A DNA stretch of 64,000 nt, from contig CBDUGV010000003.1 of assembly GCA_965366815.1 (NCBI GenBank), positions 741-64,740 on the forward strand, in the 5' to 3' direction. This document shows positions 2,564 to 58,466 of this stretch, piece by piece (positions within the stretch are counted from its first letter, which is position 1; the number at the start of each line of letters is the position of its first letter). The DNA is from an uncultured Bdellovibrionales bacterium. Its GTDB lineage: Bacteria; Bdellovibrionota_C; UBA2361; SZUA-149. The notes under the pieces were generated by a model. The model was not told where the DNA came from. It made no database searches and saw only the letters and a program-made list of their open reading frames with translations. The position numbers and the translations under genes were made by a program.

Positions 2564-3733
2564 TTATTTGATGAAATGGCGTTTCTCCTGCACCATGGTT
2601 CTTAGGAGCGGACTCGGGCGATAGCGATCTTCACCAAATGCCGCTTGGAGCTTTTCCAGTTCATTCAGTACGAAATCGAGTCCAAGTTCATCAGCCCAGG
2701 CCAGCAGTCCTTTGGGATAATTAACACCATGTGTCATGGCCAGTTCAATATCAGCTGGCGAGGCAACACCCCGAAACAGAGCATCAACAGCTTCGTTGAT
2801 CAGCAGTACCAAAGTGCGATGCAGTATTTTATCGCCCAATTTCTCATCTTTCGTGGGCTCAGACGTGAGACTCCCTTCCGCATAGCTATAAAATCCTCGA
2901 CCCGTTTTCCTGCCAAGTCGTCCAGCTTCCACATAGCGCTTTTGCTGAATTGAAGGTCGGTACCGGGGGTCAAAATACATACTCTGAAATATGCTTTCCG
3001 AGACGGTGTAATTGATGTCGATACCGATGAGATCCATTAACTCAAATGGGCCCATGCGAAACCCACCTCGCGTACGCATAGCCCAATCTATCGTCGGCGC
3101 ATCAGCGTATTGCTCTTCCAACATCTTGAGTGCTTCACCATAGAACGGTCGCGCAATTCTATTAACGATGAATCCGGGAGTGTCCTTTACTCTAACGAGT
3201 GTTTTGTTCCAGCCCGAAATTATTTGTTCGCTGCGCGTAAGAACCTCAGTTGAAGTTTGCAGAGCTTCGACAAGCTCGACCAATTTCATAACCGGGGCAG
3301 GATTAAAGAAGTGAGTTCCGACGACTCTCTCAGATTTGCGACAGGCCGAGGCAATCGCAGTGAGCGCAAGAGAGGAGGTGTTTGACGCCAGTATGCAATC
3401 GCTGTTTGTGTGGAGTTCTAGTGCGGAAAAGACTTCTTTTTTCGTTGCTAGATTCTCGTGCACCGCTTCTATGATAAGTGCACAGCCTCCAAACTCTTCG
3501 AAGCTCGCCGTTGGAGTGATGCGACTCAGGATCTCGTCCGCCTGCTCCGCGCTAAACTTCTTCTTTTCAATCAGGCGGTCAAACGTTTTTCGAAGCTTAG
3601 GGAGGAGAGCCAGTCGAGCTTCTTCAGAACTGTCATAGAGAACCACGCTGTGCCCGTACTGAGCCGCAGTTTGAGCAATGCCCGCCCCCATTGTGCCAGC
3701 GCCAACAACTCCAATGTGTTCTTTTGTGCTCAT
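2564..3733 (-). CDS. paaH: NAD-dependent 3-hydroxyacyl-CoA dehydrogenase (PaaH/PaaC-type).
   Basis: Rossmann motif VVGAGTMGAGIAQ at the N-terminus, 3HCDH C-terminal domain, and an operon position between thiolase and hydratase. Confidence 0.85.
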   Translation of the reverse strand: MSTKEHIGVVGAGTMGAGIAQTAAQYGHSVVLYDSSEEARLALLPKLRKTFDRLIEKKKFSAEQADEILSRITPTASFEEFGGCALIIEAVHENLATKKEVFSALELHTNSDCILASNTSSLALTAIASACRKSERVVGTHFFNPAPVMKLVELVEALQTSTEVLTRSEQIISGWNKTLVRVKDTPGFIVNRIARPFYGEALKMLEEQYADAPTIDWAMRTRGGFRMGPFELMDLIGIDINYTVSESIFQSMYFDPRYRPSIQQKRYVEAGRLGRKTGRGFYSYAEGSLTSEPTKDEKLGDKILHRTLVLLINEAVDALFRGVASPADIELAMTHGVNYPKGLLAWADELGLDFVLNELEKLQAAFGEDRYRPSPLLRTMVQEKRHFIK

Positions 3734-4683: not shown

Positions 4684-6777
4684 ATGAGTACAGAATTGTC
4701 CTCTTCTGACAAATTACATCCTGGGTTCGATTGGGCCTCTGTTGCGCGCTTTGTGCTCCTTTCTCGGGCGATTGACGATTTGACTGAGCAGGAACTCTAC
4801 GCCAAGAAAAATATTGCCTATCAATTTTCTGCGCGCGGCCACACACTCAGCCAGGTCTTGTTGGGAACCCTGCTCAACGATCCCCATGATGCGGCCTCAG
4901 CCTACTACCGCTCAAGACCTCTGCTCCTCTCTCTCGGGTTGGCCATTGACGACGCCTTTGCCGGTCCGCTGGGCAAGACCGGTGGATATAGTGGTGGTCG
5001 AGACATCGGCGTGGTGTGCAATCTACTTGCTGACAGCGGAACGACCGTTCTGCCAATGGCTGGCGATGTGGGCTCGCAGTTTACCCCAGCAGCAGGTTGG
5101 GCTGAATCAATACGGTACTTTCATCAAGAGTTAGGTGATACGTCCTATCAACAAAGTATTGCGGTGGCGCATGGCGGAGACGGATCGACTGCTACTAACG
5201 GATTTTGGTCTGCGCTCAATATCTGTGCGACGCGCAAATTGCCGATGCTGTTTTTTATCGAGGACAATGGCTATGCCATTTCTGTGCCTTCGCGGCACCA
5301 AACTCCCGGTGGTAATATTGCTGAAAACCTTTCGGGATATCGCGACCTGACGATACTGGAAGGTGACGGAACTGAGCCAGCGGATGCTGCAGAGGTGATT
5401 TCCAAAGCGGTGAGAACTGTGCGAGAGGAGCGTGGACCGGTGTTACTGCGCTTGGATGTTCCACGGCTTTGTGGACACTCCGGACAGGACAATCAGGCGT
5501 ATAAGTCCGAAGAAGTGCTTGCTGCTGAACAGGCGCGCGATCCCTTACCTAAGTTAGAGCAGTACTTGGTTCCCGGACTGTATTCGCCCGAAGAATGGAG
5601 TGCGCTGAGCGCTCGTGTTAACCGAGAAGTAGCCCTGGGGCTCGAAAAAGCTCTGGAAAGGCCGGACCCAACTCCAGACGATATTGAGCGCTATGCTTTT
5701 TCTGAACTACAAGCGGATGGCTCTGTTGAATGGCAGAGCGCCGGCGGGTCTAGGCAAAAGTCCAGAGTTTCAGAAACGAATCGGCTCGCTCAGCCGGAAG
5801 GCTTGCGACTTAACTTTTTAGAATGCGTTCGTAAAACGCTGGAAGCTGAACTTCGTGCGAATGACAGAATGTTGGTGTTTGGCGAAGACGTGGGGTTGAA
5901 AGGGGGCGTGCATACCGCCACTATGGATTTGCAAGAAAAATTTGGTGAACATCGAGTTTTTGACACGAGTCTCTCTGAAGAGGGAATAATTGGCAGAGCG
6001 GTCGGTATGGCGTTAGCTGGTTTGCTGCCCGTTCCCGAAATTCAGTTTCGAAAGTATGCCGATGCTGCAACTGAGCAGTTAAATAATTGCGGCACTATTC
6101 GTTGGCGCACGACAAATAGATTTGCTGCGCCCCTTGTGGTGCGCATGCCGCTCGGCCATTCACGTCGCGCAGGAGACCCCTGGCACAGCGTTTCGGGGGA
6201 AGCGGTCTGGGCCCATCAGGTTGGCTGGCGAATTGTTATTCCATCTAATGCTGAAGATGCGGTCGGCTTGTTGCGTACGGCACTACGCGGGAATGATCCA
6301 GTCTTGTTTTTTGAGCATCGTGCCTTGCTCGATGCTCCGAGTGCTCGAAGGCCTTACCCGGGCGATGAATTTGCTCTCCCGTTTGGAGAAGCGGCCTGTG
6401 TACAGGAAGGCAGCGATCTGACGGTAGTGACCTGGGGAGCGATGGTTGAGAATTGTGTTGAGGCCGTGCGGGAGTTAGACGCTTCTGTGGAGATTCTCGA
6501 TCTACGTACTATTTGTCCCTGGGACCGCGAGGCGGTATTTGCCTCAGTCCGCAAGACCAAGCGCTGTGCAATTGTTCATGAAGATACTCGCACCGTTGGC
6601 TTCGGTGCCGAAATTTCGGCCCAATTAGCAAGTGAACTCTTTTTTGATCTCGATGCACCGATTAAGCGCATTTGTCCGCCCGATATTCCGATTCCGTACA
6701 ACCCGATCTTGATGAACGCGGTTGTTCCCAGTGAGAGTCGTATCAAGCAAGAACTGCAAAAAATTCTACAATTCTAG
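4684..6777 (+). CDS. Fused alpha/beta E1 component of a TPP-dependent 2-oxoacid dehydrogenase (alpha and beta in one 697-aa polypeptide).
   Basis: The N-terminal half has the E1-alpha TPP-binding region (GDGSTATNGFWSALNICATRKLPMLFFIEDNGYAIS). The C-terminal half is E1-beta / transketolase-like (GEDVGLKGGVHTATMDL...FDTSLSEEGIIGRAVGMALAGL...RMPLGH). It lies divergent from paaG. Confidence 0.75.
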   Translation: MSTELSSSDKLHPGFDWASVARFVLLSRAIDDLTEQELYAKKNIAYQFSARGHTLSQVLLGTLLNDPHDAASAYYRSRPLLLSLGLAIDDAFAGPLGKTGGYSGGRDIGVVCNLLADSGTTVLPMAGDVGSQFTPAAGWAESIRYFHQELGDTSYQQSIAVAHGGDGSTATNGFWSALNICATRKLPMLFFIEDNGYAISVPSRHQTPGGNIAENLSGYRDLTILEGDGTEPADAAEVISKAVRTVREERGPVLLRLDVPRLCGHSGQDNQAYKSEEVLAAEQARDPLPKLEQYLVPGLYSPEEWSALSARVNREVALGLEKALERPDPTPDDIERYAFSELQADGSVEWQSAGGSRQKSRVSETNRLAQPEGLRLNFLECVRKTLEAELRANDRMLVFGEDVGLKGGVHTATMDLQEKFGEHRVFDTSLSEEGIIGRAVGMALAGLLPVPEIQFRKYADAATEQLNNCGTIRWRTTNRFAAPLVVRMPLGHSRRAGDPWHSVSGEAVWAHQVGWRIVIPSNAEDAVGLLRTALRGNDPVLFFEHRALLDAPSARRPYPGDEFALPFGEAACVQEGSDLTVVTWGAMVENCVEAVRELDASVEILDLRTICPWDREAVFASVRKTKRCAIVHEDTRTVGFGAEISAQLASELFFDLDAPIKRICPPDIPIPYNPILMNAVVPSESRIKQELQKILQF

Positions 6778-7774: not shown

Positions 7775-7985
7775 CTGCCACTCTTTTTAGTTAATTCCAT
7801 GGAATAACTCCAATCGCCCGAGTAGGGGCCATTGTACCAAAGTGGGAGTTCCAGCCTTCTCGGACTATTTGCCGCAGTTGTTTAATTGGTTTATAAACAG
7901 GGGTCGATTCTTACTAGATCTCTTGATATCAATTTTCATTCTTTCACTGTGATTTCGCGACTATAGCGAACTTTCCAGCTGCCTT

Positions 7986-10004
7986 ATGGTATTTCCTGCA
8001 CGTAAACTAGCCGACCAAGATACTTACGCGAAGGAGCCCCGCGTCGAGCGGCGTAGAGTTCTTTTGGTGGGGTCTGAGCTTGAGTCTGCGATACCTTTAT
8101 TTTCTGTGCACAGTACAGAAGTGGAGTGCTGTGACAGCTTACTTGCGGCCTCGGCTCTAGCTGAGCCGCCCGAACTACTTGTTTTTGACGCGAATCTTGG
8201 ACTCTCGGCGATTGCGCAGTTGATTGAGCAGTATTCTGTTGATTCGCCTAGTAGCTACTTGCTGCTTGCTGACTTAGCGAGCGACCCTGCTGAGGCTGTA
8301 GAGGCAAGTAGGGCTGCTTTCCGAGCAGGTGCGGATGAGTACCTGCTGCGCCCGTTTAACGAATTTCAGCTCAAGGATGCGATCGCCTATTGCTTTGAGC
8401 TCGTTGCGAAGCGTTGTACAACGCTCGAACGCGAACATGAACTTCGAACTGTTGAACGACATTTTCATCAACTTGCTGGCAATATTCCACAGATCTCCTG
8501 GATAGCTGACAAGCCGATGGGGCGCACGCTCTATATTAGTCCGGCGTATGAAAAGATATTCGGATTAAAGAAAGAGGGAATGATCGATGATTCCTACTCT
8601 TTCTATAAACTCATTCATCCCGATGATGTCGAAAAATTAGACAAGCGATGGGAGGGGCGTCCATGGACTGATTATGGGCCGGATGAATGGAACGAGGTTA
8701 CCTATCGAATAATTCGGGCTGACGGCTCTATCCGCTGGTTGTGGACCCGAGCTTTTGTGATTCGCGATGATCAGGGTGAGCCTCATCGCCTGTGTGGTAT
8801 CTCGGAGGATATTACTGAGCGGAAGTTGCTAGAGGAAGAGCTTGTTCACACGCAGAAGATGCGAGCGATTGGTGAACTTGCTGGAGGAATAGCTCACGAT
8901 TTCAACAATCTTCTTACGCCGATACTCGGCTACAGCAATTTGCTGCGAGAGGGGCGCCTTTCTGCTGAGCGCTTGCCAAAAGTTGCAGAAGTTATCGAGA
9001 AAGCTTCATTACGGGCAATGGATCTCACCAAACGCCTCTTGGGTTTTGCCCGGCGGGGTAAGCATCAAAATACCTCGATCGACATTCACAAGACGCTCCA
9101 TGAGATTCTGACTTTAATGAGTCGGACCTTTGATAAGAACATAGGTATAGAGCACGAGTTCTATGCACCGAATCCCTATGTGCTTGGAGATCCTCACCAG
9201 TTGCACCAAGTCATATTAAACTTGGTGATCAATGCTCGCGACGCTTTGGAGTCGGTTGAAAAGCCCCAGTTGAGCTTGCGCACGGAATACAAAGAAGTGA
9301 CAGGGTTTAGCGACTTTAAAACGCCAGGGCTTGAGCCGGGTGGGTACTTGGTCGTCAGCGTAAGTGACAATGGTGCTGGGATCGATGAGGAGATTCAGCC
9401 GCGGATATTCGAGCCATTCTTCACGACAAAGGATAGGGGCCACGGAAGTGGAATGGGACTTGCGATGGTCTACGGCATCGTAAAGAACCACAATGGTTCG
9501 GTGGTTGTTGAAAGTACAGTGGGAAAGGGCACGAGCTTCCACGTGTATCTGCCTATTACTGAGATCATTCCAGAAGAGCTTGCGGACTCGGTTGATAGCT
9601 CTATTGTTTCTGGAAGTGGTACGGTGCTGCTTGTTGATGACGAAGATACCGTGCTTGAGGTTGCCAGAGATATGCTGGCGAAGTTGGGGTATACGGTGAT
9701 TACAGCGTCGAACGGCAAAGAAGCGGTACAGTATTACCAAAGTAACTGGCAGGAGATCGATCTCGTTGTGCTGGATATGCTAATGCCCGAAATGGGCGGT
9801 CGTGATGCGTTTTTGGCTCTGCAGAAAATTAACCCTGAAGTCAGTGCGATTTTGTCGACAGGGTACGATCTCAATCTCGCGGCTCAGGAGATACTTGAGC
9901 AAGGGGTGATGGGCTTTATCCAAAAACCCTATACGCTTGAGCAGTTCTCCAGTGTGCTTGCTGACGTTCTAAAGGCGTCGAGTCAGCAGCAAAACGCTTC
10001 CTAG
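7986..10004 (+). CDS. Hybrid sensor histidine kinase: N-terminal receiver-like (pseudo-receiver) domain, PAS, HisKA, HATPase, C-terminal REC.
   Basis: H-box HTQKMRAIGELAGGIAHDFNNLL, G-boxes DNGAGIDEEI...GHGSGMGLAMVYGIV, C-terminal REC VLLVDDEDTVLE...DLVVLDMLMPEMGG. The N-terminal REC-like fold ends in GADEYLLRPF. Confidence 0.8.
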   Translation: MVFPARKLADQDTYAKEPRVERRRVLLVGSELESAIPLFSVHSTEVECCDSLLAASALAEPPELLVFDANLGLSAIAQLIEQYSVDSPSSYLLLADLASDPAEAVEASRAAFRAGADEYLLRPFNEFQLKDAIAYCFELVAKRCTTLEREHELRTVERHFHQLAGNIPQISWIADKPMGRTLYISPAYEKIFGLKKEGMIDDSYSFYKLIHPDDVEKLDKRWEGRPWTDYGPDEWNEVTYRIIRADGSIRWLWTRAFVIRDDQGEPHRLCGISEDITERKLLEEELVHTQKMRAIGELAGGIAHDFNNLLTPILGYSNLLREGRLSAERLPKVAEVIEKASLRAMDLTKRLLGFARRGKHQNTSIDIHKTLHEILTLMSRTFDKNIGIEHEFYAPNPYVLGDPHQLHQVILNLVINARDALESVEKPQLSLRTEYKEVTGFSDFKTPGLEPGGYLVVSVSDNGAGIDEEIQPRIFEPFFTTKDRGHGSGMGLAMVYGIVKNHNGSVVVESTVGKGTSFHVYLPITEIIPEELADSVDSSIVSGSGTVLLVDDEDTVLEVARDMLAKLGYTVITASNGKEAVQYYQSNWQEIDLVVLDMLMPEMGGRDAFLALQKINPEVSAILSTGYDLNLAAQEILEQGVMGFIQKPYTLEQFSSVLADVLKASSQQQNAS

Positions 10005-12374
10005 CAAGAAACTGATTCCACTCACTACCCAACCAATCCACCCACTGGGGTGATTGCGGATCGAATAGCTAATTGTCGCTTCATTCGCGCTGGGTCGAAA
10101 ATAGATTCGCTCTTCAGCCCCGCGATACAGAGTGCCATCGTTTGATGAGAAGAGTGGGAAGTAGCTGTAATCTAAGCGATACAATTCCCCTGGTTCTAGA
10201 TTGCGAAGCGAAAACTCTTGCTGTGTTTGGTGCCAGAGTGCCTCGGCGTCTGATGTCGCTTCCGCACCTTCGGTTTTCGCACCAGCGGGCGCGAATGCTT
10301 CACTCTTGAGGAGGTTCGCATCGAGGTAGGTTTCAAGTGCTCTATATCTTGGAATTGTTTTAATTGCGGAGTAGCTTCTGGTGTAGTGGTTCAATTCCTG
10401 ACGAGGCGAGTGTAGCATGTGGACGGCAATGCCATTTGGTACGTTGGCCGATGGAGCGTCGACTCCGACGATGAGCAATTGTTTTATTTCGGGAGGAATC
10501 TCATCGAGCGACTCGAGTTTGAGCAATGCGTATTCAGTATAGAGTTGAGGACGCGCATAGAAATAAAATTCGAGGTAGGCGAAGGGTAGTTCTTGATTCG
10601 GGTCGAAGTAGCCAACAAGTTGTCGATCGTCTCTAGAAATCTTGTTTTCTACTTCCTTGCTTATCTGCACGACTCGGTATGGACCGAAACTCACGGTCGG
10701 CTCAACTTCGAATGGTTTTAAAGAGGCATACAGGGAGTCGGTTCCGACAACGATGTGGCTTACACCGAGGTCTCGCATCTGTTGCACTTTTAGTTCGTTT
10801 TCCGGCTGGTACTTTGAGCTGAAAACCAAGAAGGAGTGATAGGTGGATGCGTTTAGCATCGTTGCCGCGACTACGGGCATACGGTAGGCAAGTGAGCTTT
10901 CAATAAAGAGCCCATTGACGACTTCTCTCTGCGCTTTCTCCGGCAATTCACTGATCAAGTAGTGACAGCTGAGATAGGGGAATTTCTGATAATCGTTTAA
11001 GTGCTCAACAAATATCCGACCCTGAACAGGGTGATCAGCTAAATACGATACTACTTGGTCCAAATCGCTGAAATGTGACTGAGCGGTCGACTGTGCTACT
11101 CGTTGCTGCTCTAACGGGCCTAGGCGCGCAGCACTTACCGTGGCTGCCAAAAGGATCGCGAGCCAAATCAGTTGTGACCATAGTTGAACTTCCACGGATC
11201 TCTGGTGTCGATCGCGTTTTATACTAGTGAGTGCCGGAACGGTTGCGAGCAGGCAAAGGAACATCAAAACGAGATATCCCTGAAATCGATAATAATGAAT
11301 GCCAAGTGGAACGTTTGCTGCGACGAAATCGCTCGAGAGTATCACACTGAGTGCGGTAAACAGAAAAAAGCTCTGGATAAGGGGTCGACATCTGCGCGGC
11401 TCAGGATGAACAAATAACAGCGCAAACAACCCCCAGAACAATAAGTAGGAGAGATTCACCTTCGCTACTGTTTTCAGTCCCTCTACTTTTAACTCGTTCC
11501 AGAGTTCGGGAAGTGGATAGCGAAAAAAGAATCGAAGTAAATCGTCTTGCGCCGGATAGACATCCGCGAGCGTAAACTCAGAGGCAAATGCGAGAAAGGG
11601 TGCGAGCCAAAACCCCGCAAGACCGATGCCTACCAGGTGCACGACTGTTAAGATTCCTCTTCGCTTTCTTCGCCAAAGAAAAGCGAGGAAACCGATGCTT
11701 GAGGCAAAAATAGCGGTGAGAGGATGAGTAAGAATCAAACAAGTGAGTGACAGGCCGAGGGCTACGGCGCGGCCTCTCGTTGGCTCGCGAAGGAGGCGAA
11801 GCAATGTGCCAAAATAAAGCAGTAGAAGGTGCCAGGCAAACAACTGTGGCAGAAGGCCGACGTACAGTACCGAACCGGCACCAATTCCAAAGAACTGCTC
11901 ATCGTGATTGAGCCACCAAAAGGCGAGAAAGCAGCAAGACAACACAAGGAGCGAACGAATCCGCCTGTAGGCTTTCTGTTGATCAGTAAGCGCAAGAGCA
12001 ACGAAAGTGGAGCTACAGAAGTACAATGAGACAGGCAGGACGGCGAGACCCATGAGGATGCTTAGATGTACGCCCAAGGAGACAGGTGTGTCCGAAAAAA
12101 GTTGAAGTGGGAAGGAGATAGTCGCCAGCAGCAGATGGCTTAAAAATCCGTAGAATTGATACGCTGGCCAACCGGTGAACCAGGATGCGTCGTAAAAGAA
12201 CAGACGTCCGCTCAGTAATTGCTCGCGTAGTTGTGAGATCAGAGCAATGTGTCCGGCCAGATCCTCAGAAGGGACTGTTTGGCCGCTTAGAAGAAATTGA
12301 TAGCGCAGTGCCGTTATCAAGAAGAACGCGGCGAACAGGGCTATTGGAAAGAGATTGCTCTTACTTTGCTGCAT
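9969..12374 (-). CDS. Large polytopic membrane protein (PTPS-related / GT-C-like membrane domain), possibly a glycosyltransferase.
   Basis: 801 aa with many hydrophobic segments. The motif YDASWFTGWPAYQFYGFLSH is typical of the membrane '6-pyruvoyl-tetrahydropterin-synthase-related' family. Overlaps the 3' end of the kinase gene convergently. Confidence 0.5.
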   Translation of the reverse strand: MQQSKSNLFPIALFAAFFLITALRYQFLLSGQTVPSEDLAGHIALISQLREQLLSGRLFFYDASWFTGWPAYQFYGFLSHLLLATISFPLQLFSDTPVSLGVHLSILMGLAVLPVSLYFCSSTFVALALTDQQKAYRRIRSLLVLSCCFLAFWWLNHDEQFFGIGAGSVLYVGLLPQLFAWHLLLLYFGTLLRLLREPTRGRAVALGLSLTCLILTHPLTAIFASSIGFLAFLWRRKRRGILTVVHLVGIGLAGFWLAPFLAFASEFTLADVYPAQDDLLRFFFRYPLPELWNELKVEGLKTVAKVNLSYLLFWGLFALLFVHPEPRRCRPLIQSFFLFTALSVILSSDFVAANVPLGIHYYRFQGYLVLMFLCLLATVPALTSIKRDRHQRSVEVQLWSQLIWLAILLAATVSAARLGPLEQQRVAQSTAQSHFSDLDQVVSYLADHPVQGRIFVEHLNDYQKFPYLSCHYLISELPEKAQREVVNGLFIESSLAYRMPVVAATMLNASTYHSFLVFSSKYQPENELKVQQMRDLGVSHIVVGTDSLYASLKPFEVEPTVSFGPYRVVQISKEVENKISRDDRQLVGYFDPNQELPFAYLEFYFYARPQLYTEYALLKLESLDEIPPEIKQLLIVGVDAPSANVPNGIAVHMLHSPRQELNHYTRSYSAIKTIPRYRALETYLDANLLKSEAFAPAGAKTEGAEATSDAEALWHQTQQEFSLRNLEPGELYRLDYSYFPLFSSNDGTLYRGAEERIYFRPSANEATISYSIRNHPSGWIGWVVSGISFLLGSVLLLTRRL

Positions 12375-13039: not shown

Positions 13040-13759
13040 ATGACTGCCGGACAGAAAATTCTCATTGTAGAAGACGAGCCTTCAATTGCGGACAATATCG
13101 TATATGCGCTCTCAACAGATGGTTTTGAGCCCATATGGTGTCAGACGGCAGCAGAGGGTCGAGAGGTCCTAGATGCCAACTCAATTAAACTGATTATTCT
13201 TGACGTCGGGCTTCCCGATGAAAACGGTTTTGAGTTCGCGAAGCAACTTCGTCAAACGAGTACCACTCCGATAATTTTTGTTACCGCTCGAGCAGATGAG
13301 GTCGATAGAATTGTCGGCCTCGAAATTGGCGCAGATGACTACGTGGTAAAGCCGTTTAGCCCAAGAGAATTGAGCGCTCGAGTCAAGGCCGTTTTACGTC
13401 GAGTTGCTTCTACCGCTGGCGAATCAAGCGCGGTACCACGAACTGACAACCAGGGAGTCTTGCGTTATGGGCCCTTCGTCCTCGACGAAGTGAAGCACGT
13501 GATAACCTATCATGAACAAGCACTCGATCTATCACGCTATGAATTTCGCTTGTTAGCGATAATGCTCAAAAGCCCCGGTCGTGTGTATTCAAGAGATCAT
13601 TTGATGCAACTTGCCTGGGAAGAGCCAGATATGAGTCTGCAGCGTACGGTCGATACCCATATTAAGACCATTCGTCAAAAGTTGCGGATCGTGCAAGCAA
13701 GCGAAGATCTAATCGTAACCCATCGAGGCATCGGCTATTCGATTAGGGAGGTGGTGTGA
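13040..13759 (+). CDS. creB: OmpR-family response regulator, CreB-like.
   Basis: KILIVEDEPSIADNIVYAL...LIILDVGLPDENGFEF...FVTARADEVDRIVGLEIGADDYVVKPFSPRELSARVKAVLRR aligns almost residue-for-residue with E. coli CreB. A winged-helix C-terminus is present. Confidence 0.8.
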   Translation: MTAGQKILIVEDEPSIADNIVYALSTDGFEPIWCQTAAEGREVLDANSIKLIILDVGLPDENGFEFAKQLRQTSTTPIIFVTARADEVDRIVGLEIGADDYVVKPFSPRELSARVKAVLRRVASTAGESSAVPRTDNQGVLRYGPFVLDEVKHVITYHEQALDLSRYEFRLLAIMLKSPGRVYSRDHLMQLAWEEPDMSLQRTVDTHIKTIRQKLRIVQASEDLIVTHRGIGYSIREVV

Positions 13760-15198
13760 GTATACGCCGCCGAATTTTCTTCGGTATCCTTTTCATTGTA
13801 GGAATCGGCTTTTATTTTCTCATTGACTGGATTGTCGGTGACCTTACGCCTCAATATCGCGAAGCAACAGAAGAGCCCCTAGTCGATGCATCGCAAGTGC
13901 TTGCCTCAGTTGCGGCAGTCTCGTCGAATGAAGACGGTGTCGATGTAGAGTTGTTTCGACGTATTTTCGAAGATACCTATAAGCGAACCTTTGAGGCCCA
14001 GATATATAATTTCTTAAAGACCGAAGTTGATTATCGTGTCTACATCACAGATGCCCAGGGGCTTGTGATCTTCGACTCTGATAATGGTCGAGACGTCGGA
14101 AAAGACTATTCTGCTTGGCGCGACGTGCGTCTCACACTGGAGGGTAAGTATGGGGCTCGTACCTCGCGGGATATTCCCGACGAACCAGGGGCAAGCGTTC
14201 TCTATATAGCTGCTCCTATAGTTGTGGATAACGAAACTATAGGTGTGCTTTCGGTCGGGAAGCCGACTCGCAATGCCAATCAGTTCATCGAAGAGGCGAA
14301 AAGAAAAATAATTGTCGGTGGGTTGGTCAGTGGATTCTCGCTAGTGTTAATAGCGCTCCTGATCTCCGCGATGATCACTCGACCAATTCACCGACTAACG
14401 ACTTATGCTCGGGCCATTCGGGATGGGCGTCGCGAGGTTCTCCCTCGCTTGTCGGGTCGTGAAATAGTTGAGTTGGGTGAAGCCTTTGAGCAGATGCGCG
14501 ATACGCTGGAGGGCAAACAGTATGTAGAAAATTATGTACAGACCCTAACCCATGAAGTAAAGAGCCCGCTCTCAGCTATTCAAGGCGCTGTGGAATTGTT
14601 GAACGAAAACCCCCCGGAAGCGCGTCGCCAACAATTTCTAGAGAATATTAGGACTGAGGCTACCAGGATTCAACAAGTTGTGGAGAAGCTACTGCTTCTC
14701 TCCAAACTTGAGACGCGTAAGGCGCTAGACGATCGACAATCGATTGAGTTGGTGGAATTACTAGAGGAAGTAGTCGGGAGCCTGTCTCCGACTGCTGTTG
14801 CCAAAGGTGTTACCGTGACTCGAGTTGGAGAAGCCTTGGCAACGTTTCAAGGTGATCCCTTTCTTATCCGGCATGCGCTGGTCAATCTTCTGCAAAACGC
14901 GATTGATTTTTCTCCAGAAAATGGAGAAGTGCACTGTGGCATTGAAATGCAGGGTGATTCTATCTGTTTGGCGGTTGAAGACCAAGGACCTGGGGTACCG
15001 GATTTCGCCGCCGGTAGAGTATTTGAACGATTCTACTCCCTTCAGCGACCAGACAGCGGCAAAAAAAGTTCAGGCTTGGGATTGAGCCTCGTGCAAGAAG
15101 TAGCTGATATTCACGGTGGACGAGTTACGATACTCAATCGACCCGAGGGTGGGGCACGGGCAGAACTCTCGTTGCCGACAGTTCTGCCGCGCTCCTAG
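13756..15198 (+). CDS. creC: Sensor histidine kinase, CreC-like.
   Basis: YITDAQGLVIFDSDNGRDVGKDYSAWRDVRLTLEGKYGARTSRD...VLYIAAPI...IGVLSVGKP and H-box YVQTLTHEVKSPLSAIQGAVELL are collinear with E. coli CreC. The start overlaps the creB stop (GTGTGA). Confidence 0.8.
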   Translation: MSIRRRIFFGILFIVGIGFYFLIDWIVGDLTPQYREATEEPLVDASQVLASVAAVSSNEDGVDVELFRRIFEDTYKRTFEAQIYNFLKTEVDYRVYITDAQGLVIFDSDNGRDVGKDYSAWRDVRLTLEGKYGARTSRDIPDEPGASVLYIAAPIVVDNETIGVLSVGKPTRNANQFIEEAKRKIIVGGLVSGFSLVLIALLISAMITRPIHRLTTYARAIRDGRREVLPRLSGREIVELGEAFEQMRDTLEGKQYVENYVQTLTHEVKSPLSAIQGAVELLNENPPEARRQQFLENIRTEATRIQQVVEKLLLLSKLETRKALDDRQSIELVELLEEVVGSLSPTAVAKGVTVTRVGEALATFQGDPFLIRHALVNLLQNAIDFSPENGEVHCGIEMQGDSICLAVEDQGPGVPDFAAGRVFERFYSLQRPDSGKKSSGLGLSLVQEVADIHGGRVTILNRPEGGARAELSLPTVLPRS

Positions 15199-15227: not shown

Positions 15228-16139
15228 CTACATTTCACTCTCGTCCAAAGCGGTCCGAACCCATCTGTTGCCATGCAGCACATACTTGATAAGTCGGCCG
15301 TTTCTGTCCGGGAGCACCATAGTCCCATCGGGAAGCTCAGGCTCTCCTTGGCCGCAATCGCCAACTACGTCGCAGTGTGTCACCGGACTTGCGGGAGGGG
15401 TTTCACTCCCATTACTTTTCGTTCCCCGCAGTGCGAGCGTGATTTTGCCCATACCTCGGGCGAGTTCTATTCGTTGTGCATCTCGGATGGTGACGAGCAG
15501 GGTTGCTGTTGCTCCTGCGCCGATATTTCGTCGTTTGTTGTCTTGATCCGTACCGTCAACAGAAAGTACTTTTACAAACTCGATAAGCGTCTTCACTGCT
15601 TTTCTGCCTCGTTGGTCCGTGTAGTGAAAAAGAATATCTACCCTGGAATTCGGTACGACATAGCCGTTCACAAGTTCAGTTTGTGTTCCGTAAATTGAAA
15701 CCGCTCGATATCCTGGTGGAATTGGCAGATCCCCAAGGGGAACTTTTTCGCTGATGTCGTCCTGAGAGATCGGAAAGCCAGCGCGAATCATCCGTTTCGC
15801 AAACTTTCCAAGCGCCATATCTTCGTGTGCCGCCGGGATGACCGAAAACGGGATGCGGTCCTTCTCGTACGACTGGAGGCTAAACATATTGGCATCAAGT
15901 CGCGTGCCTGACTCAATGCGGGTTGCGGCTATCAATACGTCGACCATTTCCAATTTCGCAGCCGGTGCATCGCTCGCTGCCGTGACTGCTGCTTGTGTCG
16001 TTTGTCCTCCTCCCAACACCATGTACGTTACAATTGAAAAGAGTGACAATACAATGACGGCTAAACCACTGATTGCAAGAACCATTTTTCGACGAGCACG
16101 TTGTGCAAAAGTCGTATTTGTCGCAAATCCCCTAGTCAT
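15228..16139 (-). CDS. cpaB: Flp pilus assembly protein CpaB/RcpC (SAF domain plus C-terminal beta-clip), lying alone with no other tad genes beside it.
   Basis: N-terminal TM segment, SAF-like region (VDVLIAATRIESGTRL), C-terminal region (RVDILFHYTD...FVKVLSVDG...ATATLLVTIRDAQRIELARGMGKITLALRG). GGAGGT lies 8 nt upstream of the ATG at 16139; the track ORF extends to 16193. Confidence 0.75.
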   Translation of the reverse strand: MTRGFATNTTFAQRARRKMVLAISGLAVIVLSLFSIVTYMVLGGGQTTQAAVTAASDAPAAKLEMVDVLIAATRIESGTRLDANMFSLQSYEKDRIPFSVIPAAHEDMALGKFAKRMIRAGFPISQDDISEKVPLGDLPIPPGYRAVSIYGTQTELVNGYVVPNSRVDILFHYTDQRGRKAVKTLIEFVKVLSVDGTDQDNKRRNIGAGATATLLVTIRDAQRIELARGMGKITLALRGTKSNGSETPPASPVTHCDVVGDCGQGEPELPDGTMVLPDRNGRLIKYVLHGNRWVRTALDESEM

Positions 16140-16322
16140 TCGGATACCTCCATCGGTATATTTTGTGATTGCTAAATAAATTTGCTCGAGCATTTGAATA
16201 GACTGAGTGCTTCGAAAATGGTTCGAATAAAAATATTCTTTCGAAGGGCCTAGTTAAATCAGATCGGATCAGTGTTCCTCGCTACATTTTTTCGAAGTTT
16301 TTGCCGAAAAAATACCTAGCCC

Positions 16323-16351
16323 GAGAACTTTTCTCATTCAACTTGGTCTAG
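16323..16351 (+). promoter_or_regulatory. Candidate ECF (sigmaE-type) autoregulated promoter for the ECF sigma operon.
   Basis: GAGAACTT, a 16-nt spacer, then TCTAG matches the GGAACTT-N16-TCTRA pattern. The -10 ends 7 nt before the ATG, so a leaderless or very short leader transcript. Confidence 0.4.
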
Positions 16352-16357
16352 TGTTGT

Positions 16358-16933
16358 ATGGAGTCATTAATCCCAGAAGAAGAACAGCTCTCTGAGCGCG
16401 AGGTGATTGAGCGCGTGCAGCACGGATCGCGGGAAGATTTTCGCCTGCTCGTGGTGGCCCATCAGTCACGTGTATTTGCAGCGATTCGGAGGCAAGGTGT
16501 TCAATCACATATTGCCAAGGAACTTACACAAGAAGTGTTCCTGAAAGCCTTTCTCAATATTAACTCGTTTCGATTTGAGGCGAGTTTTTCAACTTGGCTA
16601 TTGCGAATTACAATTAACCACACAAGTTCCTATTTTACCTCGAAGCGTTTTCGACAAGGGAAACAGACTATTCATCTGACCAGTGCAATGCATGAAGCGC
16701 ACGGAGAAGAGGACACCGACTGTTACGATCGAGAAGCGCTTGGGCGACTCAAACTGGTGATTGCGGCATTACCACCGAAGTATCGTGAGGTGTTGGTGCT
16801 ATGTGGTTTTGAACAACGCTCCTACCAAGAGATTTCAGATTTGCTTGGTATTCCGGTCGGCACCGTGCGTTCTCGATTGCATAAAGCACGGTGTATGGCG
16901 AAAGAACTCTATTTTCAGCGCAACAACGAGTAG
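16358..16933 (+). CDS. ECF (sigma-70 family, group 4) RNA polymerase sigma factor.
   Basis: Region 2 (VVAHQSRVFAAIRR...TQEVFLKAFLNINSF) and region 4 (YREVLVLCGFEQRSYQEISDLLGIPVGTVRSRLHKAR). Confidence 0.85.
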   Translation: MESLIPEEEQLSEREVIERVQHGSREDFRLLVVAHQSRVFAAIRRQGVQSHIAKELTQEVFLKAFLNINSFRFEASFSTWLLRITINHTSSYFTSKRFRQGKQTIHLTSAMHEAHGEEDTDCYDREALGRLKLVIAALPPKYREVLVLCGFEQRSYQEISDLLGIPVGTVRSRLHKARCMAKELYFQRNNE

Positions 16934-16937
16934 ACCT

Positions 16938-17807
16938 ATGGATTCGAAACTGACACAAAGGCGTTTTTTAGATTTATTCGAAGGACAGCTCACTGAAGAA
17001 GAGCGGCTTGTCCTAGAAGATGAACTCGAGACCTCTCCAGAGTTAAACAGAGAGTATACTGAGTATCGAGCCTTGGCGAAGCTCGAAGAGCTTATTGCTT
17101 CAGAAGACTTCTATCTTGAAGAAGACCTTTCAGAAATCGTCCTCGACACGATTGAGGACAAGGGAATGCAACAAGAAGCTCATGCAGCCTATTTCCGAAA
17201 GTATCATGTTTGGATTGGCAGCTTGATGAGTGTGAATGTGGCGCTTCTCGCGGTATTGGTGACACTGTTGGCACGTGGACCGGTTGCCACACCAAGCGCT
17301 CCTCGGGATACGCAAGTACAAGTTGCGAGTAGCGATGCTATCGTCCCAGGTTTTCGACCAGTTACGATCGACGTTGCAATGCCGAAGAAATTTCATCCGG
17401 AGCGTGTCGATATCCGCGTTGCATATGAGCGAGATGGTCGAAGGCAGCTTCATGATTTGGCTCGATTCGTGAAAGTGCTCGACATTAAGGATGCGCATGA
17501 CAGTGATGTTGCAAATGCCCGATTGACGCTACTTGTGCCCGATGAGGCTGCTGAGCGGATTACCCTTGCGCGACTTGTTGGTGAACTAGATTTGCTACTT
17601 TCCTCCCCGATTGCCTCTCCGAAGCCGCAGGGTGGTGAGCAGGTAACCATTCGCGACCCTTCTGGGCGACCGATTGTCGAGAATGCGGCACGCTCGACCT
17701 TTGCGGTGCTCTATTTACCAGAGAGAGACTCTGGTGTCCCAGTTCGTCAGGTGTACTATGAAGGTCATTGGCATCGTCACTACGATATGCGGGCGATTGG
17801 CTTCTAG
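16938..17807 (+). CDS. Putative anti-sigma factor: cytoplasmic N-terminal domain, one TM helix, and a periplasmic CpaB C-terminal-like domain.
   Basis: The ATG at 16938 is 2 nt after the sigma stop. The N-terminus LDLFEGQLTEEERLVLEDELE is anti-sigma-like and the TM helix is IGSLMSVNVALLAVLVTLLA. The C-terminus RVDIRVAYERDGRRQLHDLARFVKVLDIKD...ARLTLLVPDEAAERITLARLVGELDLLL aligns with the C-terminus of the adjacent CpaB (RVDILFHY...LIEFVKVLSVDG...ATLLVTIRDAQRIELARGMGKITLAL). The track's longer ORF (from 16761) overlaps the sigma gene in another frame; I rejected it. Confidence 0.6.
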   Translation: MDSKLTQRRFLDLFEGQLTEEERLVLEDELETSPELNREYTEYRALAKLEELIASEDFYLEEDLSEIVLDTIEDKGMQQEAHAAYFRKYHVWIGSLMSVNVALLAVLVTLLARGPVATPSAPRDTQVQVASSDAIVPGFRPVTIDVAMPKKFHPERVDIRVAYERDGRRQLHDLARFVKVLDIKDAHDSDVANARLTLLVPDEAAERITLARLVGELDLLLSSPIASPKPQGGEQVTIRDPSGRPIVENAARSTFAVLYLPERDSGVPVRQVYYEGHWHRHYDMRAIGF

Positions 17808-18745
17808 CCAATAAACGAGCGCCATGCGTTCACTTCGGCGGTCCGTTCGAAACGCGGCTTCAACCGCAACAGATGATCCTTAAGTGAGGTATACCATTGC
17901 ACATCGGTCTCACTGCGCAGCAAGAGTGCTGAGAGTTCCTTCGTGTCTTCGACTTCAAAAATAGCTGGATAGTCTTCACCAAGTAGGCCGACGAGTCCAG
18001 GAATCCGACTAATGATCAAGGGTAGTTCCGCCACTATCGCTTCGGAAACAACGGCTGGGGCACCTTCTACTCTTGACGACTGGACGAGGAGGTCAGCACC
18101 TCGCAGTTCGGCAAGGACTTCGTCATGCCCTACTTCTTCAAACCAATGGTAGCGTGAATTCTCCGACATTTCCTCGCGGGCACGTCTCGCGAGTTTCGGA
18201 TCTAGAGACCCGCCAAAATGGCGAATCTGTATTTTCGAAGACTGGGGGAGTAGTCGAGCCGCAGCAGCGGTGCGGAGTGGATCTTTTTCGTCTCGTAGAT
18301 GACCTGAGACGATCACGGTGAATGCATCAGAGTCCTTTGCTTTGCTATTGGTGGATAGCTCTGCCGATTGCAGTAGCACTACTGATTTCTTCTGTAACTC
18401 CGCTGGCAGCTCCGCATGGGTGCTGGGGTTTAGACAAATTACATTGTCGACAGTCGAGAGTTTTTCAGAAACAGCCAGCTTTGTCTCTTCGTTGCCATAC
18501 ATGTCAGTTCCGGTAATCGCGACGGCGACTCTTGTCGTTGGCTGCTCTTGTTTGAGACGGGCGACAATTTCCGCAGTCTTAAACACATGGAGGCAGATAG
18601 CGAAGTCGAGCTTCTCGCCATCGTATTCGTCAGCAACTCTCACCTGATGGCCGAGCTGCTCGAGGATTGCCGCCCAGCGATTGGCGGTAATTCGATTGCC
18701 ACTAGAACGTGTATTCGAGCGCGGGAAGAAGATTGCGACTTTCAT
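17804..18745 (-). CDS. Glycosyltransferase family 1 (GT4-type) protein.
   Basis: GT-B C-terminal domain signature (LLVQSSRVEGAPAVVSEAIVAELPLIISRIPGL). Likely start MKVAIFF at 18745. Confidence 0.65.
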   Translation of the reverse strand: MKVAIFFPRSNTRSSGNRITANRWAAILEQLGHQVRVADEYDGEKLDFAICLHVFKTAEIVARLKQEQPTTRVAVAITGTDMYGNEETKLAVSEKLSTVDNVICLNPSTHAELPAELQKKSVVLLQSAELSTNSKAKDSDAFTVIVSGHLRDEKDPLRTAAAARLLPQSSKIQIRHFGGSLDPKLARRAREEMSENSRYHWFEEVGHDEVLAELRGADLLVQSSRVEGAPAVVSEAIVAELPLIISRIPGLVGLLGEDYPAIFEVEDTKELSALLLRSETDVQWYTSLKDHLLRLKPRFERTAEVNAWRSFIG

Positions 18746-18927
18746 GCGTATCTCAACCCCTTTCTCACCCAGCATTCATGAATTGATATCAAATAGTTAC
18801 CTTCAATAAGGTAAAGCATCGGCGAAATACTGTCGATTCAAGAGCTATGCCTTTTGAGACTGCCCAACGGCCTTCTCATACTCTACAGACTTGATTGCAC
18901 ATATACAATTTAGCATAGCCAGTTCGA

Positions 18928-32595: not shown

Positions 32596-35500
32596 ATGAT
32601 TCGTAGACCTGCCCTTTGTTTCCTCTCCAGCGTCCTGCTCGCGTTCTACGCGTTTGTGCCGGTCGTATTGGCCGATGAGCACGCGCATCATTTGCATTCA
32701 GACCAAGAGGCATCAACTGCTGATATAGATGCCTGCCGAATTGTCCACGAAGAGAAGGGTGCGATATTGGCCGAACTCTCTCCCCCAATCGATGTCAATG
32801 CTGAGCCAGATGTCGAGCCGAGGGGTGCCGTTGTGTCGCTTGCGGTAGCGTCGGCGGGGGGTGCATTCGCTTTGCACAGCAATCCAACCGCCACGAAGAA
32901 GATCTTCTTAGACTTTGATGGGCACGTGGTTTCCGGAACTATCTGGAATTCACGAAATGGTGGCAATGACATTCATGCCCCTGCATTTAGTACAGATACA
33001 GACATTACCACTTTTTCAGCGTCTGAACTTGCGCGGATAGAAGAAATTTGGCGGCGAGTGTCTGAGGACTTTGCTCCATTTGACGTTGATGTAACTACTG
33101 AGGATCCAGGAGTTGCTGCATTTACCGCAGGGCGTCAGGCGCTTCGAGTGATGATAAGTACTGATGTTGACGAAGCGTCAATTGGAGGCACCGGTAATCG
33201 CTGGTACAGCGGTGCTGGAGGTGTCGCGTACTACAACTCATGGGACTGGACAAGTGATACGCCAGTTTGGGTGTTTGAAAACAATCTCGGCAACGGCAAT
33301 GAAAAATATACGGCTGAGGCCTCCTCTCATGAAATTGGGCATGCGCTCGGTTTGAGTCATGACGGAGATTCAGCGGTAGATTACTACAGAGGTCACGGGT
33401 CAGGTGCGACTGGTTGGGCGCCAATCATGGGCGTCGGATACTACAGAGCCTTATCTCAATGGAGTAAAGGTGAATATTTTGAGGCCGACAATACTCAAGA
33501 CGATCTCGCTATTATAACTACTCGGTTGCCCTATCGAACCGATGATCACGGTGACACGAATGGGACAGCCACCACTATTGTGCCAACGGGTACGAGTATA
33601 GCCGCGAATGGCGTTGTTACTACACCGACAGATGTTGACGTCTATGCGTTCACCACTGGTGCTGGTCTCGTATCAATCGCCATTGATCCGTATGACGCCT
33701 CCGATGGAAAAGCTAACCTCGATATTGAAGCGAAGCTCTACACCTCTGGTGGCGGCCTTGTGGTGACGAGCAATCCGGCAGATTCGCTCAATGCATCGAT
33801 TTCTGAGACGCTCGCGGCTGGGACCTATTACCTCCACATTGATGGCGTGGGAAAAGGCAATTTGACTACAGGGTATAGTGATTACGGAAGTCTTGGAGCC
33901 TATACTATCTCTGGCAGTGTACAGTTAGGCGGTGGTGGCGGTGATACAATTCCTCCAACGGCGGCAATTGGCAGTCATCCAGACGTCACAGTAGCTGCTG
34001 GGACGAGCTACGATTTTACAGTTCAGTTCTCTGACAATACTGCGATCAATGTCTCTACGCTGACGACGGGAGACACCCTTGTCACTGGTCCGAACTCATA
34101 CTCAACGACAGCAAGTTTTGTTGGGGTCAACAACAACAGCAATGGAACCCCAAGGACGGCAACCTATAGAATCACGCCACCGGGGGGGGCGTGGAGTGCA
34201 TCAGATAACGGCACTTATACAATTTCATTGGCAAGCAACCAGGTGCTCGATACTTCTGCCAACACGGCGCTGAGCGGTACTCTTGCGACGTTTAGTGTTT
34301 CGGTGGTCGACGACGCTGATAGCGATGGTGTTCCGGATGCGACAGATAACTGTCCAACGACGCCAAATGCCGGCCAAGAAAATTTCGATGGAGATGGGCA
34401 GGGCGATGCCTGCGACCCGAACGACGATAACGACAGCGTGAACGATTCTGGCGACTGCGCTCGCCTCGATGCTTCCCGATGGCGCAACCGTGCATACCCA
34501 GATACTGACAGAGACGGAGTGCGAGAATCCGCCACTCTCAAAACAGTTGCCTGTTATGGAACCACTCCACCGAGTGGGTATACCACTGCGGAGAATGGTC
34601 CGGACAATTGCCCGACGATTGCAAATGCCGGGCAGGAGAATTTCGATCTCGATGGTCAAGGGGATGCCTGTGACGCCGACGATGACAATGATGGCTTGGC
34701 GGATACTTCAGAGAACGAGTCTTCTTGCCCATTCCGTCTCGACCCTGATTCTGACGATGATGGCCAAACAGATGGTACTGATCCGAATCCCTGTGTGGCC
34801 GACGAGGAACCTGAACTCGGTAAGCGATTTTGTTCGGAATGGAACGGATTCTTAGGCGACACTCTTACTGGAGCGGGAATGTTTAACGTTATGGAAGTAC
34901 AGCGCAAGGGGGTCGGATCAGGTGCGAGGTCTACTCCAGTCAATGTGTTGGTAACGCTTTTCGAGCAAAACGGGACATCGCGAGAGAAAATTGGGTTTGC
35001 CCTTGCTCCCGGAGAGAAACGCGATGTGCTGGTTCACGATATGGACGGATTCACGCCGCTCAGTATTGGGTTGGTTTGCGTGGAACATGACGGTCCAGCG
35101 GGCGAGATAGACGGAGCGATGATCCACTACAATCAGCGTCGTGGTTCCTATGATTTTTCTATCGCAAGCGCCTTCTCTGCAGGGCTATTGGGAAGACAAG
35201 CAGTTCCCTATAACACCTATCACCCAGGACTGGCTGCGCGCCTTGAAGACAATGATCCAGACGATATCGGACAGCCCGTGCTGCCGGACCGGGTCGCGAA
35301 CTGGTTACAGATCTCTTATCCGCCAAAATCTGGTGATAGCAGAAGATTTCACGCAACTCTCACCTTGCATGATATGCGCGGAAACGTCATGCGGGATGAA
35401 AACGACCAAGAAGCTCGATTTATCATCGACATGGCTCCCGGTGAGCGAGTAGATTTTTCTGCACATGCCTACGGCCACTCTCGAGTGGGGATGGCGGTGT

Positions 35501-36699: not shown

Positions 36700-36764
36700 C
36701 CTAGAGGAGAACTAGCTTAGAGGTGGACTAGTCTAAGAATCCAGGAGTATAGGGATGGGACGGC

Positions 36765-38909: not shown

Positions 38910-39202
38910 AGAGAACCATAGTTGCCCTGCTTAAAAGTGGTGTTCCAATAGGTATCATCGGGCCTCTTGTGGACGAAGTGGTTGGGAAAGCACATTTCAT
39001 ACTGAAGTCCTCACCTATCATAAGGCTGGGGTGACCTCAAATCCAGCTAGTTTCAGCTCCGGCGGACTGACAATAAGGCTGAAATATTAGGGAGTTACCC
39101 GGGATGTCGGCAGCTGCTTGCAGCCTCATTCACATTTAAGTTCTCCAGCCTAAGAGTCGATTATTTAGGTAGGGCTGATCTCAGTTGAAAGCGAAGAAGA
39201 GT

Positions 39203-39637: not shown

Positions 39638-39692
39638 CGTCGAAGATAGAAGTGACATTCGCCGGTGGCTGATGTTTTAGAGTTTCAAACGT

Positions 39693-40532: not shown

Positions 40533-40536
40533 GGAG

Positions 40537-41376: not shown

Positions 41377-41478
41377 CTCTAAAGATTTATGGTTTTTCGG
41401 CCGAGGATTAAGCTTGTTGGTGAGCTGCACGTACTCATGTGCAGTGTTGGTTCATGTACACATCGGTTGGTTTCTATC

Positions 41479-56475: not shown

Positions 56476-56492
56476 TCAATTCCTCTCTCAAA

Positions 56493-58451: not shown

Positions 58452-58466
58452 GAGCCCGGCTTTATC

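Follow-up and report, generated by a model that had tools for sequence, protein, structure and literature searches.

The present study analyzes a three-gene locus in a 64,000-nucleotide stretch of DNA (hereafter the window; contig CBDUGV010000003.1, positions 741 to 64,740) from an uncultured Bdellovibrionales bacterium, assembly GCA_965366815.1; the window sequence is also contained in the 200-kb ENA metagenome contig ERZ25043444 NODE_26. A stand-alone paralogue of cpaB, a gene of Tad pilus machines, is positioned divergently from genes for an extracytoplasmic function (ECF) sigma factor and an anti-sigma factor, and the periplasmic part of the anti-sigma is a CpaB/RcpC protein lacking D1 (the SAF domain). 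Patterns detected at this and related loci probably, though with considerable room for doubt, reflect a three-gene regulatory module in which a CpaB-mimicking anti-sigma reports on the CpaB ring or on docking to the secretin and controls the CpaB paralogue. An initial annotation, made from the letters of the sequence, had placed the three genes at the coordinates listed in Table 1, and all three were confirmed there, as was the divergent intergenic region of 218 bp between cpaB and the sigma gene (16140-16357).

The relationship of the periplasmic domain to the adjacent CpaB, which the initial annotation had proposed from an alignment, is borne out by BLASTP, with 36% identity over 114 amino acids (E 4e-9). 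The profile comparison with CpaB/RcpC that the annotation had recommended was also significant: hhalign of the anti-sigma family against 18 CpaBs gave a probability of 99.85% and E 1.2e-30 over 207 columns. This alignment spans the membrane helix, D2, the L3 linker and the C-terminal hairpin, and skips only D1 (SAF), about 80 CpaB columns. There was no Pfam SAF match in the window anti-sigma, and SAF, which lies outside the region matched by Pfam RcpC, is exactly the part that is missing, with D2, linker and hairpin kept. The top PDB match in Foldseek was 9gzr, “Tad pilus alignment complex protein RcpC” from P. aeruginosa (E 1.9e-4, probability 1.00). In an AlphaFold2 (AF2) model built from 17 homologues, with a mean predicted local distance difference test score (pLDDT) of 79 and about 90 in folded parts, residues 139-222 form a beta-rich domain (D2 pLDDT 89-93) and the C-terminal region, residues 235-288, forms six strands (pLDDT 78-87). 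RcpC is laid out as membrane helix, D1, D2, L3 linker and beta-hairpin (PMC12307814, Evans et al. 2025); its D2 forms a C12 ring, L3 is required for oligomerization, and the hairpin, which is needed for function, binds the N-domain of the RcpA secretin and completes its beta-sheet (PMC12307814). From the retained membrane helix, D2, L3 and hairpin, therefore, the window protein can be described as an anti-sigma domain joined to a CpaB without D1. It is not a CpaB in the strict sense, because D1 is missing and because it scores 27 bits against TIGR03177 (pilus_cpaB), for which the cut-off is 71.

Conservation within the family peaks at G243, Y259 and W278, which are invariant, and at D240, R244 and V257, which are nearly so; all six are positioned in the C-terminal region that contains the hairpin. 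Besides a segment homologous to the CpaB hairpin, this beta domain has an additional DPxGRxI strand and ends in a conserved aromatic residue; the CpaB tail VMYxxDPxTGRQxRYVLxNGRW is matched in the anti-sigma by the segment AVLYLPERDSGVPVRQVYYEGHW. In nearly all family members the final residue is aromatic and the one before it small (-AF, -GF, -AY or -SF, with one -DL; in the window at 17790-17804), an ending that CpaBs do not have, and such C-termini resemble aromatic signals recognized by PDZ-type or tail-specific proteases. A family hidden Markov model over D2 and the tail gave 120-133 bits with canonical CpaBs from Tad loci and 52 bits with the adjacent orphan CpaB. The ectodomain thus resembles CpaBs generally rather than its neighbor, because the model scores the Tad-locus proteins higher.

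The N-terminus had been described as anti-sigma-like, and the family profile, zf-HC2 matches and an H-x3-C-x2-C motif in relatives agree. The N-terminal family profile matched six solved proteins, every one an anti-sigma factor (RsiW, 5wuq, at E 0.0017, then RslA, MucA, RsrA, RseA and DdvA), while Pfam zf-HC2 was matched by 7/17 homologues and H-x3-C-x2-C was kept in 8/17. AF2 predicts helices at residues 3-14, 20-32, 34-55 and 65-77, with pLDDT 91-94 across residues 11-50. Class-I anti-sigma domains sequester ECF sigma factors, and residues 1-77 are, by sequence comparison, homologous to such a domain (ASDI/ZAS). One membrane helix had been proposed, and a single hydrophobic peak was found (residues 93-111, Kyte-Doolittle 2.28) together with an AF2 helix at 86-112; hhalign pairs this helix with the membrane helix of CpaB.

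The upstream gene product matches Pfam Sigma70_r2 (E 1.6e-10) and r4_2 (E 1.7e-17), with no r3 or r1, and scores 83.9 bits against TIGR02937, for which the cut-off is 42.9; among named models it comes closest to RpoE and SigW, with no score reaching an equivalog cut-off. With sigma-2 and sigma-4 only, an adjacent anti-sigma and a predicted autoregulatory promoter, it is to be classified from its predicted features as an ECF (group 4) sigma-70 factor. The sigma stop codon, TAG, and the ATG of the anti-sigma gene are 4 nt apart (ACCT), so that the earlier description of the pair as translationally coupled stands as to close spacing but not as to overlap. The initial annotation had also considered that the true anti-sigma gene might be a longer, out-of-frame open reading frame (ORF). 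That ORF (16761-17807) is actually in the same frame, extended upstream, and the evidence backs the shorter gene: the start is the Met of 16938 in 17/17 aligned homologues, and gene callers on 4 contigs chose the length of 289 amino acids.

To detect the family, HMMER had to be run exhaustively against 1.84 billion representatives, and this yielded 43 matches; word-indexed searches with the anti-sigma alone or with the family alignment returned only the query and one relative. About 20 of the 43 are full-length relatives (counted as sequence clusters) with 27-35% identity and E 4e-30 to 1e-9, and the others are true CpaBs matching over residues of about 130-281 only or other anti-sigmas matching over 4-77 only. 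Every member of the anti-sigma-CpaB family comes from metagenomes. Orthologous loci (designated here by L numbers) were located by a GTDB genome scan using the sigma alignment. The sigma orthologues are 40-54% identical (40-52% for those placed by the GTDB scan), and the ones carrying an organism name occur almost entirely in metagenome-assembled genomes (MAGs) of Bdellovibrionales, Bdellovibrionota or “Deltaproteobacteria”, with one labelled Pseudomonadota and one “bacterium”. A metagenome scan added one module locus, L097, which is truncated and agrees in sequence with L018, plus a partial sister locus, L098.

Two patterns of linkage may be identified. First is that the anti-sigma gene comes immediately after an orthologous ECF sigma gene wherever the upstream sequence is readable (window, L011, L012, L014, L015, L017, L018, L021, L022, L097 and L177). 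Secondly, cpaB adjoins the sigma/anti-sigma pair in all eight module loci where a cpaB is visible, and it does so in three gene orders: divergent from sigma (window, L012, L177, L178), following sigma and anti-sigma (L011, L022), or preceding both on the same strand (L015/L016, L021). The anti-sigmas of these eight loci are only 25-35% identical, and no other neighboring gene is conserved at module loci.

A survey of other genomes for ECF anti-sigmas with RcpC domains, as the initial annotation had advised, found such relatives, with L021, L017 and L022 above the Pfam threshold. The L021 protein, at 491 amino acids, combines an anti-sigma domain with a nearly complete CpaB (123.9 bits against TIGR03177, cut-off 71; 69 bits for Pfam RcpC), and the L022 anti-sigma scores 44 bits for RcpC. 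In L017 (6540-9173), zf-HC2 and RcpC (69 bits) occur together with vWF_A, VWA and YfbK_C, the RcpC domain being flanked by the membrane helix and the VWA part, and by domain content this protein is a hybrid of the RcpC and VWA types. Four sister sigma orthologues (L019, L020, L023, L024) are paired with vWF_A, VWA and YfbK_C anti-sigmas that have no RcpC signal, and none of these four loci (0/4) has a cpaB within 6 kb. The VWA-type sister anti-sigmas, including that of L017, are 730-890 amino acids long.

The promoter predicted earlier at 16323-16351 matches a motif, cGAACTTTyc-N10/11-nnGTCTAa, that is conserved ahead of the sigma orthologues of at least 15 loci (its exact position is given in Table 1). 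In the window, the pattern GAACN{16,18}GTCTA occurs exactly three times in 64 kb, against 1.19 expected, and two of the three are in the intergenic region between cpaB and the sigma gene, each facing its own gene. The motif also precedes the module cpaB in the window and in L012, L011, L021, L177 and L178, and L015 has a variant of it; paired motifs, one for sigma and one for cpaB, recur in L012, L177 and L178, and a single motif precedes cpaB in L011, L015 and L021. In L021, where cpaB is first in a co-directional row, there is a motif before cpaB and none before sigma, and cpaB is therefore predicted to be sigma-dependent in every arrangement. The question raised initially, whether the sigma regulon includes cpaB, may thus be answered in the affirmative in silico, from the minus-strand motif in the window and those of the six further loci. 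The -10 element of the window sigma promoter ends 7 nt before the ATG (7-8 nt in the window, at 16346-16360, and in L178, at about 112-145), and the sigma mRNA may be leaderless in these two because of this short distance. In most other orthologues the leader is 30-60 nt long and ends in a conserved AAAGGTT ahead of the start codon.

Some further promoter matches were obtained. In L022 an extra exact match at 3627-3652 precedes two unannotated genes upstream of sigma (263 and 148 amino acids, no Pfam match), which may be additional, putative regulon members in that MAG, and another, at 6469-6494, coincides with the beginning of the cpaB that follows. Three matches in the window were rejected. 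The match GCGAACTTTCC at 7966-7996 (+), upstream of a hybrid PAS histidine kinase gene (7986-10004), has a good -35-like part and a poor -10 element (GGTATT) and is probably due to chance, since shuffled sequence reaches equal scores; those at 32773-32798, inside an ORF, and at 36709-36735, facing the wrong way, are attributed to chance.

The stand-alone CpaB paralogue is complete, with membrane helix, D1/SAF, D2/RcpC, linker and hairpin, and its tail aligns with the CpaB hairpin. It matches Pfam SAF (E 1.8e-6) and RcpC (E 1.4e-18) and scores 114 bits against TIGR03177 (cut-off 71), and a GGAGG is positioned 8 nt upstream of its ATG at 16139. The initial annotation had called this gene an orphan, which is correct locally, since it is not inside a tad/cpa operon (flp, cpaC/rcpA, cpaE, cpaF, tadBC) and no Tad genes were found within about 38 kb of it, but only there, given TadE/TadG-like genes at 54.4-58.9 kb of the window and a full Tad locus on another contig of the same samples. 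A neighbor-joining tree of D2, weakly resolved at about 100 columns, placed the module CpaBs of the window, P0003, P0004 and L012 in one clade (bootstrap 93). On the same tree, the D2 of the L022 anti-sigma grouped with the D2 of its own neighbor (bootstrap 90) and that of the L021 anti-sigma fell within the canonical CpaBs (bootstrap 100). As far as such a tree can be read, it suggests repeated fusion or gene conversion.

The Tad locus (L005, 1-16918) is on a second contig from the same two samples and encodes CpaE, Flp, a 493-amino-acid protein of unknown type, the CpaB P0005, CpaF, TadB and TadC. The window paralogue is 43% identical to P0005. Coverage of the Tad contig and of the window contig was 7.44 versus 7.30 in one sample and 5.35 versus 5.27 in the other, with G+C of 0.503 versus 0.498; because coverage tracks and G+C matches, the two very probably belong to one genome. 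The Tad locus has an unusual context that is conserved in L005, L007 and L009, and thus also in related MAGs; the gene order is PP2C phosphatase, unknown protein, Ser/Thr kinase, CpaE, Flp, CpaB, CpaF, TadB, TadC, an FHIPEP (FlhA-like) gene and a further kinase-like gene. The 493-residue ORF of L005, between flp and cpaB in the position expected of a secretin, was tried as a candidate and had no Pfam or PDB match. Within the window, a Tad minor-pilin-like cluster lies 38 kb from the module, at 54418-58934 (-), with TadE-like proteins of 155 (E 1e-7) and 461 amino acids (E 1e-10), a 190-residue protein without a match, and a 685-residue protein whose N-terminus is Tad/TadG-like (22.8 bits, cut-off 22.3). 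No sigma-type motif was found upstream of this cluster.

Domain architecture, sigma orthology, cpaB linkage and the shared promoter motif were computed, whereas partners, signal direction and proteolysis in the mechanism that follows are inferred. The anti-sigma would hold the sigma factor at the membrane, and its CpaB-like ectodomain would take the place of a CpaB subunit, either by joining D2 rings of CpaB or by docking to the Tad secretin N-domain through its hairpin. The stability or conformation of the ectodomain could then report how complete or how occupied the Tad alignment complex is. A changed contact would inactivate the anti-sigma. Regulated proteolysis, the route known from other single-pass anti-sigmas, would be the most likely means, and a tail-specific or PDZ-type protease may recognize the conserved aromatic C-terminus. 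Sigma, once released, would transcribe its own operon and the CpaB paralogue, and the latter could feed back on the sensor because the output has the sensor's domain. A more specific version, which we put forward only tentatively, is that the anti-sigma belongs to the Tad alignment complex as a surrogate or sub-stoichiometric subunit, co-assembling with CpaB through D2 and L3 with its hairpin on the secretin, such that assembly, occupancy or mechanical load of the pilus machine is passed directly to ECF-dependent transcription. If this were true, the module would be an assembly or surface-contact checkpoint for Tad pili, with the co-regulated CpaB paralogue as its feedback element.

Several observations weigh against this interpretation. 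The window copy matches Pfam RcpC at residues 137-221 with E 1.9e-4 and 21.8 bits, short of the 28.8 set as gathering score. The D2 of this copy has diverged strongly and has a gap of 5 residues in the loop where CpaBs have G-x-V-E-G-F-A-K-P, and the capacity for ring formation may have been lost in this copy because of that divergence and gap. The zinc ligands are lost as well, ELETSPELNRE standing where relatives have HLxxCxxC, and the window anti-sigma is consequently a non-zinc member of its family. The hybrid L017 has an RcpC domain and yet no cpaB within 6 kb. Neither the window nor the Tad loci L005, L007 and L009 yielded an identifiable secretin gene; these three Tad loci also lacked any convincing promoter motif, and the Tad locus was dropped as a candidate regulon member on that ground. 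When a position-weight matrix for the promoter was applied genome-wide, shuffled sequence scored as high as real sequence, and we make no claim of a wider regulon beyond the two predicted promoters because the matrix does not discriminate. Lastly, the sigma-releasing state could be either the docked or the undocked one.

An alternative explanation could be a generic envelope-stress ECF pair, in which the ectodomain is a scaffold or oligomerization module without any link to Tad and cpaB is the relic of a donor gene after duplication. The RpoE/SigW-like sigma factor would fit such a pair, as would the highly diverged D2 of the window anti-sigma and the solitary RcpC domain of L017. The closest sister orthologues carry an unrelated VWA/YfbK_C ectodomain, and the sensor domain is therefore swappable. 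We nevertheless think this explanation unlikely. A relic would not remain adjacent across three gene orders and eight loci with anti-sigmas so far diverged from one another, and would not retain a sigma-type promoter ahead of it. Conservation is strongest in the hairpin region, an element that binds a partner in RcpC, and the D2 of the L022 anti-sigma groups with that of its neighbor as if mutual compatibility were required.

A second alternative, to which we give somewhat less credence again, is secretin-directed signaling resembling cell-surface signaling, with the hairpin alone docking on the secretin N-domain, no CpaB ring involved and cpaB merely an output. This would account for the placement of the invariant residues in the C-terminal hairpin domain and not in D2, and it has a counterpart in the completion of the RcpA N-domain beta-sheet by the RcpC hairpin (PMC12307814). 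The model would be FecR-type anti-sigmas, which contact the signaling domain of TonB-dependent transducers. In cell-surface signaling the outer-membrane partner binds the anti-sigma and shields it from proteolysis (PMC11637429). It would not account for the retention of D2 and L3 across the family, as both would be dispensable, and a secretin was not found in the accessible sequence; it is in any case a sub-variant of the mechanism above and not its true opposite. It is highly improbable that the 289-residue protein is no anti-sigma at all but a CpaB variant with a structural role in a second Tad-like machine and with an N-terminus of only superficial resemblance, for although the window copy lacks H-x3-C-x2-C, has no Pfam anti-sigma match of its own and matches the anti-sigma model NF052375 under threshold (E 4.8e-5), the gene is always immediately 3′ of an orthologous ECF sigma gene, the zinc motif and zf-HC2 persist in 8 and 7 of the 17 homologues, the PDB matches of the family profile are all anti-sigma factors, AF2 places four helices ahead of the membrane helix, and the protein lacks D1 and is never in a tad operon.

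Read as a regulatory module with a CpaB-mimicking anti-sigma, the locus can be compared with several known systems. From CpaB/RcpC (P. aeruginosa RcpC, 9gzr) the window anti-sigma has the membrane helix, D2, L3 and C-terminal hairpin; it differs in lacking D1, in having an anti-sigma domain in place of the short cytoplasmic tail, in the extra DPxGRxI strand and aromatic end, and in its position outside a tad operon. With class-I (ZAS-type) single-pass anti-sigmas such as RsiW, RslA, RsrA and MucA/RseA it shares the four-helix domain, one membrane helix, an extracytoplasmic sensor and a gene placed after that of the ECF sigma, but its sensor derives from a pilus-machine subunit and the window copy has lost the zinc ligands. 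FecI/FecR/FecA signaling is similar in concept only, in that a membrane anti-sigma would touch the periplasmic N-terminal domain of an outer-membrane channel and relay the state of that channel to an ECF sigma; the module has neither a FecR domain nor a TonB-dependent transducer, and its presumed partner, a secretin, was not identified. Equally conceptual is the likeness to the FlgM/sigma-28 checkpoint, where the fate of an anti-sigma is tied to the assembly of an envelope machine, except that FlgM is soluble and exported through the machine and the protein described here is membrane-anchored and resembles a structural subunit. Anti-sigmas with vWF_A, VWA and YfbK_C (DUF3520) have been described for ECF289 (Casas-Pastor et al. 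2021, PMC7826278). The sister loci L019, L020, L023 and L024 have this anti-sigma architecture, and L017 adds RcpC to it, a likeness by architecture alone; in contrast, the window family lacks VWA and YfbK, and the VWA sister loci lack a neighboring cpaB.

The arrangement was thought in the initial annotation to be undescribed, and no account of it was found in the literature searched on anti-sigma or ECF factors with CpaB, RcpC, Tad or Bdellovibrio. CpaB, RcpC and pili are unmentioned in the main texts, supplements aside, of the papers on ECF reclassification and class-I anti-sigmas. ECF anti-sigmas with diverse sensor domains are common, and the module is for that reason no new category. What is new is a sensor derived from a pilus alignment subunit, the conserved partner gene and the shared promoter motif. 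To our knowledge, it is largely unknown how Tad (type IVc) pilus machines signal their assembly or activity to gene expression. The role of RcpC/CpaB as a periplasmic alignment ring was itself established only in 2025 (PMC12307814). An anti-sigma derived from CpaB, together with a CpaB paralogue predicted to be sigma-dependent, would provide a concrete molecular route for coupling a pilus machine to gene control, and the proposed coupling could be tested with a few constructs. It would also add a new class of sensor domain for ECF anti-sigma factors, and a natural “CpaB without D1” offers a means to dissect how D2, L3 and hairpin drive assembly.

Table 1. Coordinates of the module genes, protein domains and predicted promoters, numbered from the first letter of the window.
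Feature	Position	Strand	Basis
Stand-alone CpaB paralogue, 303 amino acids	15228..16139	-	Pfam, TIGR03177
C-terminal hairpin segment of the CpaB paralogue, about residues 272-294, GTMVLPDRNGRLIKYVLHGNRWV	15258..15326	-	CpaB tail alignment
Predicted ECF-type promoter of cpaB, GAACCATTTTCGAAGCACTCAGTCTA	16199..16224	-	Exact motif match
Predicted autoregulatory ECF-type promoter of the sigma/anti-sigma operon, GAACTTTTCTCATTCAACTTGGTCTA	16325..16350	+	Conserved motif
ECF (group 4) sigma factor, 191 amino acids	16358..16933	+	Pfam, TIGR02937
Anti-sigma fused to CpaB without D1, 289 amino acids, stop codon included	16938..17807	+	
Cytoplasmic class-I anti-sigma domain (predicted), residues 1-77, four helices	16938..17168	+	AF2, family profile
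Single transmembrane helix, about residues 89-112	17202..17273	+	Hydropathy, AF2, hhalign
Periplasmic D2 (Pfam RcpC), residues 135-222	17340..17603	+	Pfam, Foldseek, hhalign
C-terminal beta domain, residues 235-289, with the CpaB-hairpin homologue AVLYLPERDSGVPVRQVYYEGHW	17640..17804	+	

Genes flanking the module in the window, namely a two-component system (13040-15198), a glycosyltransferase (17804-18775) and a PAP2 gene, were rejected as module parts, none being conserved beside the module elsewhere. Among ORFs of the window without a Pfam match, two are large, at 9969-12374 (-) with 801 amino acids and at 36765-38909 (-) with 714, and four others, of 150-301 amino acids, form a row at 39185-41958 (+).

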